This document shows, piece after piece, positions 1,176 to 62,342 of a stretch of DNA of 64,000 nt. A program made the position numbers and the translations under genes. Each line of letters starts with the position of its first letter. Position 1 is the stretch's first letter. The notes beneath the pieces were generated by a model that saw only the letters and a program-made list of their open reading frames with translations, was not told where the DNA came from and made no database searches. Origin of the DNA: an uncultured Gammaproteobacteria bacterium (GTDB lineage Bacteria; Patescibacteriota; Patescibacteriia; Patescibacteriales; GWC2-42-12); the NCBI GenBank assembly GCA_964560005.1, contig CAZLKB010000002.1, forward strand, positions 192,381 through 256,380, read 5' to 3'.

Positions 1176-2651
1176 ATGGAAAAGATATATTTATACAATA
1201 CTTTAACCAGGAAAAAAGAGGAATTTAAGCCGATTAAAAAGGGTAAAATCGGTTTTTATCATTGCGGCCCCACGGTTTATTGGACCCAGCACATCGGCAA
1301 CCTGCGCGGCATGACCTGCGGCGATATAGTCGTGCGCAGTTTAAGGTATTTAGGCTATAAGGTGAAGCATGTCAGAAATTACACGGATGTCGGCCACTTG
1401 ATTTCCGACCAAGACCAGGGCGAGGACAAAATGGAAAAAGGCGCCAAACGCGAAGGCAAGACGCCGAAACAAGTCGCGGAAAAATATATTAAAGTTTTTG
1501 ATAATGACACGGCCGAGCTTAATCTTTTGGAGCCGGACAAGAAGCCCAGAGCCACCGAATATGTTAAAGAGATGATAGAAATGGTGCAAACTCTCGCGGC
1601 CAAAGGCTATGCTTACAACACCGATCTGGCGATCTATTTTGACACCACTAAAGCCAAAAATTACGGCCAACTTTCCGGGCAAGAAATTTCGGATAAACAA
1701 GCCGGCGCCGGCAGGGGCGAAGTGAGCGATCCGGAGAAAAAACATTCGGCGGATTTCGCTTTGTGGTTTTTTAAGGCCGGTTCGCATGAGCAAGCCATGC
1801 AATTTTGGCCGTCGCCCTTTAAGTCAAAATTAGCGGACAAGGGCTATGGTTTTCCCGGCTGGCACATTGAATGTTCGGCCATGAGCAAAAAATTGCTAGG
1901 CGATACCATTGATATTCATTTAGGCGGCATTGAGCATATCCCGGTGCATCATACCAATGAAATCGCCCAATCGGAAGCGGCCAATGGCGTTAAGTTCGTG
2001 AATTATTGGCTGCATAACGAGCATTTGCTGGTGAATGATAAAAAGATGTCCAAGTCGGCGGGTACGAGCTTCAGCCTGGCGGATGTTCAGGAAAAGGGCA
2101 TTGGCAATTCCTTGGTTTTGCGTTATTTTTTCTTACAAGCGCACTATCGCTCTAAGCAGAATTTTACCTGGGAAGCGCTAGCCGCCTCCGAAAATGGTTT
2201 TAATCACTTGGTTCACTTAGTTTGCGATTTAGGCGAGAAAACCGGCGTAATAAATAATGATTTCAAATTAAAATTTTCTAGCGCCCTAGCCGATGATTTT
2301 AATTTGCCTCAGGCCTTAGCCGTAGCCCAGGAGCTGTTTAAGTCTAATTTAGGCAACGCGGAAAAGTTGGCGACTATTCTGGATTTTGATAAAGTTTTGG
2401 GATTGGATTTAAAGAATAATTCTAAACTTAGGAGAACCTTTTTTTCTAAAAAAGTAAGCATCATTCCTAAATTCAGCTATATTAAATATCCCAAAGGAGT
2501 TGATAGTCTGGTTAAGAAGCTGTTTAAGGCCAGAGAGCGTGCCAGGCTTAATAAAGACTGGACGGAGTCCGACCGTTTGCGCCTGGAGATGGAAAAATTG
2601 GGCTGGAAGGTGGAAGATAGGAAAGAGGGGCAGAGAATTAGCAGGAAATAA
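1176..2651 (+). CDS. cysS: Cysteine--tRNA ligase
   Basis: Class I aaRS motifs: CGPTVY..HIGN (HIGH-like) and KMSKS (DKKMSKSAG). Length 491 aa. Confidence 0.95.
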   Translation: MEKIYLYNTLTRKKEEFKPIKKGKIGFYHCGPTVYWTQHIGNLRGMTCGDIVVRSLRYLGYKVKHVRNYTDVGHLISDQDQGEDKMEKGAKREGKTPKQVAEKYIKVFDNDTAELNLLEPDKKPRATEYVKEMIEMVQTLAAKGYAYNTDLAIYFDTTKAKNYGQLSGQEISDKQAGAGRGEVSDPEKKHSADFALWFFKAGSHEQAMQFWPSPFKSKLADKGYGFPGWHIECSAMSKKLLGDTIDIHLGGIEHIPVHHTNEIAQSEAANGVKFVNYWLHNEHLLVNDKKMSKSAGTSFSLADVQEKGIGNSLVLRYFFLQAHYRSKQNFTWEALAASENGFNHLVHLVCDLGEKTGVINNDFKLKFSSALADDFNLPQALAVAQELFKSNLGNAEKLATILDFDKVLGLDLKNNSKLRRTFFSKKVSIIPKFSYIKYPKGVDSLVKKLFKARERARLNKDWTESDRLRLEMEKLGWKVEDRKEGQRISRK

Positions 2652-2652
2652 G

Positions 2653-2698
2653 AGATGCTGAATCCCGCCCGAGGCGGGCAAGCAAGTTCAGCATGACA
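2653..2698. repeat. Hairpin repeat AGATGCTGAATC[19-nt insert]AAGTTCAGCATGACA (upstream copy)
   Basis: Same 27 nt as 3033-3059, interrupted at 2665-2683 by the GC-rich palindrome CCGCCCGAGGCGGGCAAGC. It also sits where a cysS terminator would be. Confidence 0.85.
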
Positions 2699-2708
2699 TT
2701 GCATACAT

Positions 2709-2735
2709 TGTCATTCCGGCCTCCGAGCCGGAATC
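2709..2735. repeat. GTCAT-anchored hairpin TGTCATTCCGGCCTCCGAGCCGGAATC
   Basis: 8-bp stem ATTCCGGC/GCCGGAAT. The same sequence recurs at 62254-62282. Confidence 0.85.
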
Positions 2736-2742
2736 TATTTTT

Positions 2743-3021
2743 ATGAGGAATAAAATGGGCTATATTTACATTATGGCTAATAAACCAAATGGTGTTTTGT
2801 ATATTGGAGTGACTTCAAATTTAGAGAATAGAATTTATCAACATAAGAATAATCTTATACCGGGCTTTACCTCAAAATATAATTTGAAAAATATTGTATA
2901 TTATGAAGTCTTCGATGATATTAGAGAGGCGATTAGTCGAGAAAAACAATTAAAAAATTGGCGGCGGCAATGGAAAATTGCTTTAATTGAAAAGGAAAAT
3001 CCTGGATGGAGAGATTTGTAA
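2743..3021 (+). CDS. GIY-YIG nuclease family protein (UPF0213/YhbQ-like, 92 aa)
   Basis: GYIYIM...VLYIGVTSNLENRIYQHK...REKQLKNW motif pattern typical of small GIY-YIG proteins. Confidence 0.9.
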   Translation: MRNKMGYIYIMANKPNGVLYIGVTSNLENRIYQHKNNLIPGFTSKYNLKNIVYYEVFDDIREAISREKQLKNWRRQWKIALIEKENPGWRDL

Positions 3022-3032
3022 AGTAAAATAAC

Positions 3033-3059
3033 AGATGCTGAATCAAGTTCAGCATGACA
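3033..3059. repeat. Hairpin repeat AGATGCTGAATCAAGTTCAGCATGACA (downstream, uninterrupted copy)
   Basis: Stem ATGCTGAA/TTCAGCAT. Direct repeat of 2653-2698 minus the insert. Confidence 0.85.
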
Positions 3060-3069
3060 GTTCTAAAAT

Positions 3070-4026
3070 ATGAATAATTTTTGGTCCTCCTTCGCTGAAG
3101 CTTCGGAGGATAAAGCAAAATTGAAAAAGCCTATTTACGCTCTGGCGCCCATGGCCGGAGTGGCGGACAGCGCTTTCAGGCAAATCTGCAAAGCTTACGG
3201 CGCGGATGTAGTCTATAGCGAAATGGCCAGCGCCGCCGCGCTGGCTTATAATCCGAAAAAAACTTTGGAATTATTAGAATTTTCTAAAAGCGAACGGCCG
3301 TATGTGGTTCAACTGTTCGGCGCTAAGCCGGATCATTTCGCTCGGGCAGTAAAAATCGTGGAAAAAAAAATTAAACCTGACGGCATTGATATAAATTTCG
3401 GCTGTCCGGTTAAAAAAGTCGCTCGCCAGGGCGCGGGCGCGGTGTTGATGGATAATTCTAAATTGGCGCGTGAAATAGTTGAAGCGACCATAAATAACAC
3501 CAATTTACCCTTGTCAATAAAAATAAGATCACGAGCCAGAAAGACTACGGCGTTAAATTTTTTAAAAGAAATGGCGGGGTTAGATATAAAAGCCGTGATG
3601 ATTCACGGACGGACCATGGCGCAGGGCCAGAGCGGGGAAGTGGATTGGAAAACCATAAAACGAGCGCGGCCGCTGGTCAAAGGGATTTTAATAGCCAATG
3701 GGGGAGTGAAGGACGCGTCGGATGCCGTAGAATTGCTTAAAAAGACCGGAGCTGACGGAATTGGAATAGGTCAAGGAGCCTTGGGAAGACCGTGGGTTTT
3801 TGAGGAAGTTAGAAGTAAGAAGTTAGAAGTAAGAAGAAAAGAAGAAATTTTCAGGGTGATGTTGAAACATGCCAAATTGGCGGAGAAGCTGAACGGCAAA
3901 CAAGGAATAGCGGAGATGCGAAAACATCTATGTTGGTATGTGAGTGGTTTGCCTAACGCCAGCAGTTTAAGGGAGCGATTGGTAAAGGTGGAAAGTTTAA
4001 GTGATATAAAAAAGATATTGAGGTAA
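3070..4026 (+). CDS. dus: tRNA-dihydrouridine synthase
   Basis: APMAGVADSAFRQIC...INFGCPVKKV...HGRT motifs of the Dus TIM-barrel family. Confidence 0.9.
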   Translation: MNNFWSSFAEASEDKAKLKKPIYALAPMAGVADSAFRQICKAYGADVVYSEMASAAALAYNPKKTLELLEFSKSERPYVVQLFGAKPDHFARAVKIVEKKIKPDGIDINFGCPVKKVARQGAGAVLMDNSKLAREIVEATINNTNLPLSIKIRSRARKTTALNFLKEMAGLDIKAVMIHGRTMAQGQSGEVDWKTIKRARPLVKGILIANGGVKDASDAVELLKKTGADGIGIGQGALGRPWVFEEVRSKKLEVRRKEEIFRVMLKHAKLAEKLNGKQGIAEMRKHLCWYVSGLPNASSLRERLVKVESLSDIKKILR

Positions 4027-10454: not shown

Positions 10455-10518
10455 TGCGGGATCGTCCCAGTCATACGACGGGACAGATCCAATGGTAAGA
10501 CATCGCCCTCTGGAGGCG
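10455..10518 (+). pseudogene. Truncated 5' fragment of tRNA-Gln carrying a 23-nt palindromic insertion
   Basis: 10455-10467 plus 10491-10518 are identical to tRNA positions 1-42 of the intact gene at 10833. The 23-nt insert CAGTCATACGACGGGACAGATCC (10468-10490) lies in the D-loop. No T-arm or 3' acceptor strand follows. Confidence 0.85.
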
Positions 10519-10556
10519 CCCTATCATTCGATAGGGCGCCATGTCGAATGACATGG
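10515..10556. repeat. Two small palindromes at the break point of the tRNA fragment
   Basis: GGCGCCCTATC-ATTC-GATAGGGCGCC (perfect 11-bp stem) followed by CATGTC-GAAT-GACATG. Confidence 0.8.
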
Positions 10557-10571
10557 CGAGTTGATATTGTT

Positions 10572-10832
10572 ATGTATTATGTTTATATATTATTGTTAAA
10601 CAATAAACAGTTATATACTGGTTATACAGATGATTTAAAGAGGAGAATAGCAGAGCATAAAGCTGGTAGTAGTAAATTTACGAGCTGTAGATTACCTGTC
10701 AGTTTAATTCATTACGAAGCATATTTACTAGAATCTGATGCTAGAAGAAGAGAAAAATATCTTAAAACGACAGAAGGCAAAAGATTTTTAAGACAACAAT
10801 TAAAAGATTTAATAGAAAATATTAAAAATTAA
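10572..10832 (+). CDS. GIY-YIG nuclease family protein (UPF0213-like, about 86 aa)
   Basis: YYVYILLL..QLYTGYTDDLKRRIAEHK...RREKYLK motifs. The ORF track starts at 10548 inside the palindrome, so ATG 10572 is preferred. The stop codon abuts the tRNA. Confidence 0.85.
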   Translation: MYYVYILLLNNKQLYTGYTDDLKRRIAEHKAGSSKFTSCRLPVSLIHYEAYLLESDARRREKYLKTTEGKRFLRQQLKDLIENIKN

Positions 10833-10903
10833 TGCGGGATCGTCCAATGGTAAGACATCGCCCTCTGGAGGCGAGTATCTTGGTTCGAATCCAAGTCCCG
10901 CAA
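10833..10903 (+). tRNA. tRNA-Gln (anticodon CUG)
   Basis: Manual cloverleaf: acceptor TGCGGGA/TCCCGCA, D stem GTC/GAC, anticodon stem TCGCC/GGCGA with loop CTCTGGA (CTG at 10865-10867), T arm CTTGG-TTCGAAT-CCAAG. CCA is not encoded. Confidence 0.9.
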
Positions 10904-10911
10904 CAGCTATA

Positions 10912-21037: not shown

Positions 21038-22130
21038 AGTAAAAATAAAAAAATACAGTAAAATCGCTTACGCTAAAATAACCAACAGCTTGATTGGCAG
21101 TTTTTATATTAAAACTAATTTATTTACGCCCAAACCGGCAAAATTATATTATTTAATAACCAATAAATGCAATTTTCATTGCCAGATGTGCCCGCAATGG
21201 AAGACCGGACAGGGAGAAAAAGAGGAAGAATATATCGGCGAAGACAGAATAAAGGAAATAATTAAACAGATGGCCGAATTAAGAATTTTTGAATTCGGCA
21301 TTTCCGGCGGCGAGCCGCTGATTTATCAGGACAAAGTATTAAGGCTGTTAAAATTCGCCAACCAACGCGGCCTGTATACTCATTTCACGACTAACGGCAG
21401 CTTATTAACCGAAGAATTCCTGAAAGAATATGATAATTGCGGCGGCGGGCATGTTTCCTTGTCCCTGGATGCAATAGGCGAAAAGCATGACGAATTGCGC
21501 GGCTATAATGGCGCGTCGGCCGGAGTTATAAAAGCTATTGACATAATTAAGAAAAATAAATTTAAAAATCTAGTCTTAAAGATAAATATCACTTTAACCA
21601 ATAGAAACCTGAACCAGGTGATGGGAATATTATCATTAGCCAAAGAGGTTGGAGCCGTTGCTTTTATCCAGCCGCTTGATGTTTATGATTTTAAAAGCCG
21701 CCACATAAATAATTGGCAGGAAAAAAATCCGCTCTGGATTAAAAAAGAAAATTACGGAAAATTAACCGAGCTGATAAAAGAATTGGTTGATTTTAAGAAT
21801 AATAATCCGGCCGTACTATTGAATAATTCCGAGCATTTGAAAAGCTTTTACGATTATTTTACCAAAGACAGTTTTTATACCGTTTGCACCGCCCCCCTGG
21901 ACCAGATAACCATCAATCCTTTCGGCGAGATTATTTTATGCAAGTTCGGTAAAATCGCCAGTTTAAAAAATACCGGCTTAAAAGATTATATTTACAGCGA
22001 CCAAAGGAAAAATATAATGCAGGCCGCTTTAAAATGCCGGCAGGGCTGTCTGCTCGGTTGCATGTTTAAAGCTAAAATAACAGATCTAATTATGAATGGA
22101 CCGAAACAATTTATAAAATTAATTAGATGA
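21027..22130 (+). CDS. Radical SAM protein with a SPASM-like Cys-rich C-terminus
   Basis: CNFHCQMCPQW, SGGEPL, and C-terminal C...C...CRQGCLLGC. Confidence 0.85.
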   Translation: MFNKVKIKKYSKIAYAKITNSLIGSFYIKTNLFTPKPAKLYYLITNKCNFHCQMCPQWKTGQGEKEEEYIGEDRIKEIIKQMAELRIFEFGISGGEPLIYQDKVLRLLKFANQRGLYTHFTTNGSLLTEEFLKEYDNCGGGHVSLSLDAIGEKHDELRGYNGASAGVIKAIDIIKKNKFKNLVLKINITLTNRNLNQVMGILSLAKEVGAVAFIQPLDVYDFKSRHINNWQEKNPLWIKKENYGKLTELIKELVDFKNNNPAVLLNNSEHLKSFYDYFTKDSFYTVCTAPLDQITINPFGEIILCKFGKIASLKNTGLKDYIYSDQRKNIMQAALKCRQGCLLGCMFKAKITDLIMNGPKQFIKLIR

Positions 22131-23353
22131 CTGCCAAATTAAAAATATTACAAATTAATAAATTTTATTATTTGCGCGGCGGTTCAGAGCGTTATCTTTT
22201 TGAGCTGGAAAAAATTTTAAAACAGGCCGGCCACGAGGCGGTTCCTTTCTCTATGAAGGACGAAAGAAATCAGCCGTCGCCTTATCAAAAATATTTTATC
22301 GAGCCGATGAATTTGCATCGCTTTAGTTTAAAAAATATTTTCAAGATTTTTTATAATTGGGAAGCGGCGTGCAATCTGGAAAAATTAATCAAAAAAGAAA
22401 AACCGGATTTAGCGCATTTGCACAATATTAATTATCAAATTAGTCCGGCAGTTATCCGAATATTAAAACGGCACGGTATTCCCATTATTATGACGCTTCA
22501 CGATTATAATATTATTTGCCCCAATGACAAACTTTTTACCCGAGGCAGTCAATGCGAACGTTGCCGGACCGGCGGGTATTATCATTGTTTATTAAATAAA
22601 TGCTCGCATAATTCAGCCGGCCAAAGCTTTCTGGCCATGCTGGAAGCTTACTTTAATAACCGTTTTTTAAAAATTTACGAACAGGTAGATTTATTTATCG
22701 CTCCCAGCCGAGCCATGAAAGAGTCTTGCGTAAAATTTGGCCTGCCAAAAGATAAAATTATCGATTTATGCTACCCGATTGATATAAATAATGAACCTGC
22801 GGCGGATTTAGGCAGAGCAAATTATGTATTATATTTTGGCCGATTATCTTCGGAAAAGGGAATTGGCGTTTTGTTGGAGGCAATGGCAAAAGTTAATGAT
22901 AAAATCAATTTAAAATTGGCCGGCGCCGGGCCTGATTATCAAAAATTAGAAGATAAAAATAAAAAATTAAATCTGTCCGGCAGGGTAAAATTTTTAGGAC
23001 CTAAATATGGCAATGAATTATCGGTTTTAATAAAAGGGGCATTAGCTATTATAGTACCATCGGTTTGGCCGGAAAATATGCCTTACAGCATGTTAGAATC
23101 GTTAGCTATGGGGAAAATTGTAATTGCCAGCCGTATGGGCGGCTTAAGCGAGATGATAAAAGACGGGGATAACGGCTTTTTATTTAAAAGCGGAAATAGC
23201 GATGAATTGGCAAAAAAAATTAACCTGGCTGTGATTAGAAATGAGATTATAAAAACCATGGAAGAAAAAGCAAAAAACAGTTTGGTTGGACTGGATAGCA
23301 GAAAACACGGTGAAAAGATTATGGCGTTATATAAGAAAATATTAAAATCATAA
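22127..23353 (+). CDS. Glycosyltransferase family 4 (GT-B)
   Basis: GGSERY N-terminus. C-terminal PS.WPENMPYSMLESLAMGK...GG..E E-x7-E region. ATGA start-stop overlap with the upstream gene. Confidence 0.85.
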   Translation: MTAKLKILQINKFYYLRGGSERYLFELEKILKQAGHEAVPFSMKDERNQPSPYQKYFIEPMNLHRFSLKNIFKIFYNWEAACNLEKLIKKEKPDLAHLHNINYQISPAVIRILKRHGIPIIMTLHDYNIICPNDKLFTRGSQCERCRTGGYYHCLLNKCSHNSAGQSFLAMLEAYFNNRFLKIYEQVDLFIAPSRAMKESCVKFGLPKDKIIDLCYPIDINNEPAADLGRANYVLYFGRLSSEKGIGVLLEAMAKVNDKINLKLAGAGPDYQKLEDKNKKLNLSGRVKFLGPKYGNELSVLIKGALAIIVPSVWPENMPYSMLESLAMGKIVIASRMGGLSEMIKDGDNGFLFKSGNSDELAKKINLAVIRNEIIKTMEEKAKNSLVGLDSRKHGEKIMALYKKILKS

Positions 23354-45630: not shown

Positions 45631-45684
45631 TCCCCTAACCACCTCCGCCAGAGGCGGATAAATTTATCAAGGGGGCAAAATTAT
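45631..45684 (+). promoter_or_regulatory. Conserved 5' motif (CCCCT...GC-hairpin...TTATCAAGGGGGCAAAA) upstream of the ATG
   Basis: Shares its architecture and the string TTATCAAGGGGG / TCAAGGGGGCAAAA with 60181-60273. CCCCT can pair with the AGGGG of the SD-like element. Confidence 0.45.
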
Positions 45685-62253: not shown

Positions 62254-62282
62254 GTGTCATTCCGGCCTCCGAGCCGGAATCC
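62254..62282. repeat. GTCAT-anchored hairpin (same sequence as 2709-2735)
   Basis: GTGTCATTCCGGCCTCCGAGCCGGAATCC. Confidence 0.85.
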
Positions 62283-62316
62283 AGATTTCACGAATGGTGT
62301 AAAAACTAAAAAAATG

Positions 62317-62342
62317 GATCCCGGGTCAAGCCCGGGATGACA
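62317..62342. repeat. GTCAT-anchored hairpin, variant, in inverted orientation
   Basis: GGATCCCGGGTCAAGCCCGGGATGACA. The reverse complement is TGTCATCCCGGGCTTGACCCGGGATCC. Confidence 0.85.

Follow-up and report, generated by a model that had tools for sequence, protein, structure and literature searches.

A probable Ssn-family GIY-YIG nuclease flanked by hairpin motifs at a cysS-dus junction, and a second hairpin-associated GIY-YIG gene beside tRNA-Gln

Within a 64,000-nucleotide stretch of contig CAZLKB010000002.1 (assembly GCA_964560005.1, positions 192,381 to 256,380; hereafter the window), a small gene at 2743-3021, encoded between cysS and dus, very probably specifies an SsnA-like site-specific endonuclease of single-stranded DNA (ssDNA), and the three hairpins surrounding it would be its cognate motifs (SRMs), as judged from the sequence and by analogy with Neisseria. 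The Ssn family comprises ssDNA cutters that act beside a specific hairpin (Chenal et al., Nat Commun 2025; PMC11893778). As reported there, SsnA of Neisseria meningitidis is a 94-amino acid (aa), single-domain GIY-YIG protein of family cd10448, which defines Ssn in that paper; it binds the NTS repeat CGTCATTCCCGCGMAVGCGGGAATCYRG as ssDNA only and on one strand only, cuts a few nucleotides (nt) to the 5′ side of it, and reduces transformation with DNA that carries NTS. The same paper describes SRM-flanked homologues in many phyla, with at least one SRM in 71% and SRMs on both sides in 42%. Binding depends above all on the C after the palindrome and cutting on the three bases before it, while the identity of the loop is dispensable and its extension or opening is allowed in vitro (PMC11893778). 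The locus in the window, hereafter cassette 1, is arranged as follows.

1176-2651, plus strand: cysS (cysteinyl-tRNA ligase; Pfam tRNA-synt_1e, E=3e-87, plus CysS_C), syntenic in related loci L001-L006
2653-2698, minus strand: putative SRM-a, outer stem 2655-2662 with 2687-2694, loop interrupted; sense strand 5′-TGTCAT-GCTGAA...TTCAGC-ATC
2665-2683, plus strand: nested 19-nt insert CCGCCCGAGGCGGGCAAGC in the SRM-a loop; inner hairpin 2664-2678
2699-2708, no strand: 10-nt spacer between SRM-a and SRM-b, which stand head-to-head; putative site of cleavage of both strands, modelled on SsnA of Neisseria
2709-2735, plus strand: putative SRM-b TGTCATTCCGGCCTCCGAGCCGGAATC, sense orientation, 7 nt ahead of the ATG and followed by a T-run
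2743-3021, plus strand: ssn, predicted 92-aa single-domain GIY-YIG nuclease of the Ssn family (PF01541; homology to the N. gonorrhoeae protein)
3033-3059, minus strand (sense): putative SRM-c, intact 27-mer, stem 3035-3042 with 3048-3055; covariation in the 27-mer family
3070-4026, plus strand: dus (tRNA dihydrouridine synthase; Pfam Dus, E=9e-71), with a hairpin-encoding insertion at 3085-3116

A first-pass annotation had described at this junction a 92-aa GIY-YIG open reading frame (ORF) with a 27-nt hairpin repeated on either side, the upstream copy being split by a 19-nt palindrome; every sequence and coordinate it gave for cassette 1 is present, the ORF carries the expected domain, and the repeat exceeds chance expectation. 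The upstream copy lies in three pieces (AGATGCTGAATC at 2653-2664, CCGCCCGAGGCGGGCAAGC at 2665-2683 and AAGTTCAGCATGACA at 2684-2698). Beyond this locus the 27-mer has no further occurrence in the 64-kb window (0 expected), and its 12-nt 3′ half is likewise found in the window at these two sites only. Folding of all hairpins as ssDNA gave z-scores of -2.9 to -5.6 relative to shuffled controls, and the interrupted SRM-a retains an outer stem of 8-9 base pairs (bp), inside which the insert folds as a nested 6-bp hairpin.

The 92-aa protein matches PF01541 at residues 5-78 (E=1.8e-19), with no other domain match, and shares 58% identity over 85 aa (pairwise BLASTP, E=8e-37) with the product of an N. 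gonorrhoeae GIY-YIG locus in which canonical NTS repeats flank the gene; tblastn against an N. gonorrhoeae chromosome returned 57.6% identity (E=4e-26). We treat this reference locus as ssnA (Chenal et al. 2025) and assume its identity with NMV_0044. The similarity lies well within the E<1e-10 by which that paper defines Ssn homology, and SRM hairpins stand on both sides of the gene (2653-2698, 2709-2735 and 3033-3059), the flanking arrangement that accompanies the definition. Together with the published system, the 58% identity places cassette 1 among loci of the Ssn/SRM kind, with which it shares a single-domain GIY-YIG protein of approximately 90-100 aa, flanking hairpins of oriented GTC/AT-stem/C form, and further dispersed copies. 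The protein consists of the catalytic domain only and has no separate DNA-binding domain of the type found in I-TevI and Seg (TIGR01453 scores 25.9 bits vs a cut-off of 56). No sequence relative was found in the PDB at E<=0.01, NCBIfam holds no specific family for either GIY-YIG protein of the window, and an exact-sequence look-up of four window proteins gave no match, the gene calls of the source genome starting elsewhere (P0001 = 88 aa). Among the Neisseria sequences, locus L105 (NZ_CP119142.1, 1881319-1882373) belongs to a 2.17-Mb Neisseria gonorrhoeae chromosome filed in PLSDB as a plasmid; its ssnA-like frame has no in-frame ATG, a nearby ATG being out of frame, and may represent a frameshifted copy.

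Comparison of the local hairpins revealed a single motif. The reverse complement of the 27-mer reads TGTCAT-GCTGAA-cttga-TTCAGC-ATCT and the ATG-proximal hairpin reads TGTCAT-TCCGGC-ctccga-GCCGGA-ATCT, and all three hairpins share the form YGTC, AT-initiated 8-bp stem, loop, stem complement and then C. Because the ATG-proximal hairpin and the 27-mer have this same form in opposite orientation, the gene is bracketed by inverted copies (TGTCAT...ATGACA), and the upstream 27-mer is an additional copy, head-to-head with SRM-b and 10 nt away from it. The SRM, of which the Neisseria NTS/dRS3 repeat is a particular form, was searched for here as GTC, an AT-initiated perfect stem and then C, in place of the published pattern. 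A strict version (GTCAT, 8-bp stem, C) identified six sites in the window, vs 0.005 in dinucleotide shuffles: three at ssn, one doubtful site at 22084-22131, and two that form a pair 59 kb from ssn.

62255-62342, no strand: ORF-less inverted SRM pair, TGTCATTCCGGCCTCCGAGCCGGAATCCAG, 30 nt, TGGATCCCGGGTCAAGCCCGGGATGACA; intergenic, ahead of a tgt-like gene

The left member of the pair is identical to SRM-b. The published degenerate SRM pattern has a single match in the window, which is the right-hand member of the pair, at 62314-62342 (0.04 expected). The doubtful site (AGATCTAATTA...27 nt...TAATTAGATGAC) is an AT-rich 9-bp inverted repeat in an SRM-like frame (AGAT...ATGAC), located in coding DNA where two ORFs overlap with stop and start sharing ATGA, and could be either a degenerate SRM or a chance occurrence in AT-rich DNA.

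A scan covering one genome per species yielded 80 loci with 84 homologous genes (56-74% identity) in Proteobacteria, Bacteroidota, Patescibacteria, Planctomycetota, Chloroflexota, Omnitrophota and others. The flanks of these genes carry canonical NTS sequences such as CGTCATTCCCGCGAAAGCGGGAATCCAG. A sense SRM lies <=150 nt upstream of 69% of the 84 genes and an antisense SRM <=150 nt downstream of 80%, with both present in 60%, and SRM-like hairpins around the genes show a strong orientation bias. Their density reaches 5.8 per kb within 150 nt of a gene vs 0.25 per kb more than 500 nt away, a 23-fold difference. The base following the stem is C in 162 of 163 distinct SRM-like hairpins, a feature not demanded by the search, and 29 different stem 6-mers occur among them, compensatory pairs included.

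These data bear directly on whether the hairpins might instead serve cysS and the small ORF as ordinary transcription terminators or regulatory RNA stems, with no relation to the nuclease, a reading that we regard as very improbable. The hairpins do lie directly after stop codons, SRM-b with its T-run is terminator-like on the plus strand (2713-2734) in a terminator scan, and one G.U-compatible pair occurs in a relative; however, the conserved unpaired YGTC and C, the orientation bias and the enrichment beside Ssn genes of unrelated phyla are not explained in this way, and Rfam at the gathering threshold returned only tRNA over the window, with no family for the ssn hairpins. The 27-mer as a generic terminator was rejected, as the plus strand shows no T-run after either copy. 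Still less credible, to the point of being nearly dismissed, is a REP/RAYT-type system, in which extragenic palindromes are kept by a domesticated transposase: the logic of one gene flanked by its own hairpin repeats, with more copies dispersed, is the same, but the protein is GIY-YIG rather than an HUH/Y1 transposase, so that the comparison survives as an analogy only. As an analogy it is close, since REP/RAYT (TnpA-REP) and IS200/IS605 systems likewise combine a single-copy gene with flanking and dispersed hairpin repeats recognised as ssDNA; they differ in catalytic fold (HUH Y1 vs GIY-YIG), and no transposition has been shown for Ssn. Chenal et al. themselves note the REP/RAYT analogy and the layout NTS-ssnA-NTS, which resembles an insertion sequence (IS) (PMC11893778).

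Along with the distant members of the family, syntenic relatives of cassette 1 were recovered. Homologues of the 92-aa protein are detectable in 3099 cases (62-85% identity) across very diverse phyla, and the closest (80-85%) retain the order cysS-gene-dus in four metagenomic lineages (L001/2, L003/4/5 and L006). In these relatives the 27-mer family occurs on both sides of the gene with one or two copies per side, and an uninterrupted upstream SRM lies just after the cysS stop, at the same place as SRM-a. The two sides of a relative locus sometimes differ in stem sequence, each remaining base-paired, and the stems show compensatory changes (ATGCTGAA/TTCAGCAT, ATCCTGAA/TTCAGGAT, ATACTGAA/TTTAGTAT and ATGCCGG/CCGGCAT). 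Across 15 copies of the 27-mer family, 97.5% of cells are paired, three pairs show double changes, and none of 500 shuffles equals the covariation score observed. The window and its relatives share 81-85% identity in the small nuclease, vs 46-57% in CysS and 68-74% in Dus, and as CysS is so divergent across these lineages, the cysS-ssn-dus arrangement must be old rather than a recent insertion. Despite approximately 50% CysS identity, SRM-b including its T-run is 100% identical in L001, L003, L005 and L006, which indicates a strongly constrained site; by this comparison, the small gene and its proximal hairpin appear to be under strong constraint. That the nuclease is better conserved than its neighbours could be due to such constraint or to cassette exchange between lineages. 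The pairwise identity pattern of the small nuclease is discordant with that of CysS.

The first-pass annotation had read the locus as the footprint of a mobile or homing unit, that is, an IS-like or homing cassette inserted beside a pre-existing 27-nt hairpin that was thereby duplicated. The association of hairpin and gene on which that proposal drew is real, as the 23-fold enrichment around 84 genes attests, but neither target duplication nor a recent insertion is supported, and we consider such a cassette unlikely. Its ends (TGTCAT...ATGACA) do bracket the ORF in the manner of terminal inverted repeats, and the ORF-less pair at 62255-62342 resembles a miniature inverted-repeat transposable element; with 27-mer copies numbering one to two per side and differing within one locus, however, the repeats do not trace to one duplication event. 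A patchy distribution over many phyla at 56-74% identity, cysS or dus nearby in 0 of the 80 surveyed loci, the higher conservation of Ssn relative to CysS and Dus, and the IS-like origin raised by the Ssn authors (PMC11893778) would all suit a mobile unit, yet the same junction is occupied in four lineages whose CysS proteins are only about 50% identical, no empty cysS-dus junction was recovered among these four, all of which carry the gene, and Pfam detects neither a DNA-binding nor a transposase domain. The notion of a duplicated insertion target also fails because the ATG-proximal hairpin is the same motif inverted, and an ORF-less pair exists 59 kb away. The direct repeat is thus better described as what appear to be two copies of one SRM variant within a repeat family, and the module is a long-standing resident of the cysS-dus junction in this lineage.

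Several observations weigh against the assignment of cassette 1 to the Ssn system. The published SRM pattern misses all three hairpins at the ssn locus; the N. gonorrhoeae reference locus is oriented oppositely, with motifs antisense upstream and sense downstream; the G.U-compatible pair, found in the upstream copy of L003, also suits structure at the RNA level; and SRM copies are few, with five clear examples in 64 kb, such that a genome-wide role as in Neisseria is uncertain. Unlike Neisseria Ssn, the system of the window has stems ATGCTGAA, ATTCCGGC and ATCCCGGG in place of ATTCCCGC, belongs to a small, AT-rich genome of Patescibacteria type (as judged by closest homologues), has a low copy number with one copy bearing a palindrome in its loop and local copies outside the published pattern, and has a predicted activity.

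The 19-nt insert CCGCCCGAGGCGGGCAAGC is absent from the corresponding SRMs of the syntenic relatives (L001, L003 and L006), and from this comparison the palindrome appears to be a later, lineage-specific insertion in the SRM loop. Since neither the identity of the loop nor its extension abolishes SsnA cutting in vitro (PMC11893778), such an insert should be tolerated. The insert matches a hairpin located about 30 nt inside the dus coding region of L003 (1 mismatch) and L001 (2 mismatches); a chance origin was discarded, since by our own arithmetic the dus genes of the relatives would contain about 2e-5 such matches (<=1 mismatch) by chance. An in-frame hairpin insertion within the first 30-50 coding nt of dus varies by lineage, and N-terminal alignment shows that L006 is without it.

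Sites of the dus hairpin insertion: window 3085-3116; L003 4366-4390; L001 4390-4414

The inserted sequence is CCGCC-NGA-GGCGG-ACAAGC in L001 and L003, and TCCTCC...GGAGGA-TAAAGC in the window. A second GC-rich palindrome nested in the loop occurs in about seven of the 163 SRMs, from other phyla (L014, L024, L035, L041, L047, L068 and L078), and one may speculate that such inserts originate by template switching or by repair after a cut. Nested palindromes in SRM loops are therefore recurrent, and the accessible parts of the Ssn paper (PMC11893778) do not discuss them. A further hairpin at 45645-45663 (CCGCCAGAGGCGGATAAAT), intergenic and about 25 nt ahead of a start codon, resembles the nested insert and differs from it by 3 mismatches (0.03 expected).

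If it behaves like its counterparts from Neisseria, N. elongata, N. wadsworthii and Wolbachia, the enzyme would bind the folded hairpin only in ssDNA, on the strand reading 5′-YGTC-AT(stem)-loop-(stem)AT-C, and would then cleave a few nt 5′ of the motif. The sense strand is plus for SRM-b and minus for SRM-a and SRM-c, and these orientations predict cleavage of both strands within 2699-2708 and of the minus strand immediately past 3059, the latter cut falling just outside the hairpin-gene-hairpin unit. In the cell, the enzyme would most likely cleave SRM-bearing ssDNA that is incoming or exposed by replication or repair, and SRM-b with its T-run may also insulate or attenuate transcription from cysS.

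The window encodes a second GIY-YIG gene, which the first-pass annotation had credited with the same layout. The formal layout does recur in this locus (cassette 2), down to an upstream copy split by a 23-nt hairpin, whereas the two loci differ in the subfamily of the nuclease, in the family of the hairpins and in the unit that is repeated, here a tRNA segment.

10455-10571, plus strand: pseudo-copy of tRNA-Gln(CTG), tRNA nt 1 to ~53; 41/41 shared nt identical to the intact tRNA
10572-10832, plus strand: second GIY-YIG gene, 86 aa, UPF0213/Slx1-like (PF01541, E=9e-15)
10833-10904, plus strand: intact tRNA-Gln(CTG) (ARAGORN; Rfam RF00005, 59.4 bits)

Within the pseudo-tRNA, a 23-nt hairpin occupies the D-loop (10468-10490), and after the anticodon stem GGCG repeats flank two small hairpins in inverted orientation that together span 40 nt (10519-10558). 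The resemblance to the tRNA is gradually lost at the T-loop position, the point at which the ORF begins, and the stop codon of the ORF abuts the 5′ end of the intact tRNA-Gln. The 86-aa protein is 37% identical to the 92-aa protein and falls short of the Ssn threshold, aligning with the Neisseria protein over 64 aa at 38% identity (E=1e-7), and it has no C-terminal W-x-R-x-WK...NP-W-DL block. It does match the UPF0213 structures 1ywl (EF2693; E=1.7e-8) and 1zg2 (BH0048; E=2.1e-7), proteins placed in the Slx-1 cluster by Dunin-Horkawicz et al. 2006 (PMC1564403), and thereby resembles prokaryotic Slx1-like proteins in sequence; unlike cassette 2, those proteins have no function, hairpin partner or tRNA linkage reported in the searchable literature. 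Homologues of the 86-aa gene are mostly from Patescibacteria. The cassette 2 hairpins belong to another family, with a core GTCATNCGAC and a length of roughly 18 nt, found only in loci of this gene type and, when paired, always plus/minus and 2 nt apart.

Six independent loci share this architecture.

Loci of cassette 2 type: window 10455-10904; L087 2465-2905; L088 2346-2836; L092 2453-2920; L094 1487-1940; L106 1088-1900

In all six, a UPF0213/Slx1-type gene has an intact tRNA (Gln, Ser or Met) on one side and a partial pseudo-copy of that tRNA on the other; the loops of the pseudo-copy, especially the T-loop (TTCG|AATCC), carry hairpins with the GTCATNCGAC core, usually as an inverted pair. 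L087, L092 and L088 encode a pseudo tRNA-Gln with such hairpins in the D-, anticodon or T-loop, followed by the ORF and the intact tRNA-Gln, while L094-L103 encode an intact tRNA-Ser, the ORF, GGGTTCG, a hairpin pair and the tRNA 3′ end. L106 contains tRNA-Met followed by two tandem units, each composed of the tRNA 3′ part, a terminator, the ORF, TAGGTTCG and a hairpin pair, and in effect inserted at T-loop TTCG|ATTCC. About 17 of 27 further homologues have read-through N-termini that translate the hairpin and then CG|AATCC (..DMANP, ..DVANP, ..TGRIP). L087 and L092 have intact tRNA-Gln genes that agree at 70/72 positions and pseudo-copies that differ from the intact genes and from each other, which suggests that the ORF moves, along with the intact tRNA, into resident tRNA genes that differ between loci. 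Downstream of about position 1950, L094-L103 encode Endonuclease_NS, RHS-repeat genes or small ORFs, depending on the sample, and the tRNA-Ser/GIY-YIG unit thus borders a strain-variable region. Relatives of the second gene on viral contigs amounted to one weak match with no tRNA, and phage and plasmid homologues at ~40% identity showed no tRNA linkage, so that the tRNA architecture is limited to the close subclade. A tRNA intron was considered and set aside, because the exon segment occurs twice and a group I intron would be far larger than this insert.

No description of this tRNA-linked architecture was found in the searchable literature. Its nearest analogies are T4 SegB and tRNA-targeting integrative elements. 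A homing-type mechanism may be proposed. Free-standing GIY-YIG homing endonucleases (I-TevI; T4 SegB in a tRNA gene cluster, PMC2330249) have in common with the loci of the window a GIY-YIG catalytic domain and an intergenic position, and SegB also the association with tRNA genes seen in cassette 2; they differ in that they carry a C-terminal DNA-binding domain and cut double-stranded DNA, and neither hairpin repeats nor partial duplication of the target gene are features of I-TevI or SegB. Like integrative elements such as mycobacteriophage Ms6, whose attB lies in the T-loop of a tRNA-Ala gene (PMC1762012), cassette 2 has a T-loop junction and a duplicated segment that keeps one tRNA intact; unlike them, it has no integrase, measures only ~0.4 kb, and carries small hairpins and a GIY-YIG nuclease where those elements have att sites. 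A joint reading of both loci, which we offer tentatively and hold to be slightly less probable than its negation, is that cassette 2 represents an undescribed minimal selfish or domesticated element, in which a UPF0213/Slx1-type nuclease with its own GTCATNCGAC hairpins in tRNA loops and a replacement tRNA segment would spread by tRNA homology alone; that the hairpins in SRM loops and in pseudo-tRNA loops would reflect one process, the entry of palindromes into ssDNA hairpin loops; and that both GIY-YIG subfamilies would be hairpin-guided ssDNA nucleases.

Cassette 1 carries the Ssn/SRM partnership into a genome of Patescibacteria type that is reduced and rich in AT, and adds putative enzyme-motif pairs with stems ATGCTGAA, ATTCCGGC and ATCCCGGG, which are of practical interest because Ssn enzymes are in development as sequence-specific ssDNA cutters. 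As the published SRM pattern misses these variants, the reach of the family is probably underestimated. Cassette 1 is in itself of modest interest, and cassette 2, along with the repeated insertion of hairpins into hairpin loops, provides the more valuable leads. If the joint reading is true, a second GIY-YIG subfamily, of long-unknown function, would be partnered by hairpins of its own and specifically linked to the loops of tRNA genes, which would be a first concrete function for bacterial UPF0213 proteins and would make their role directly testable.

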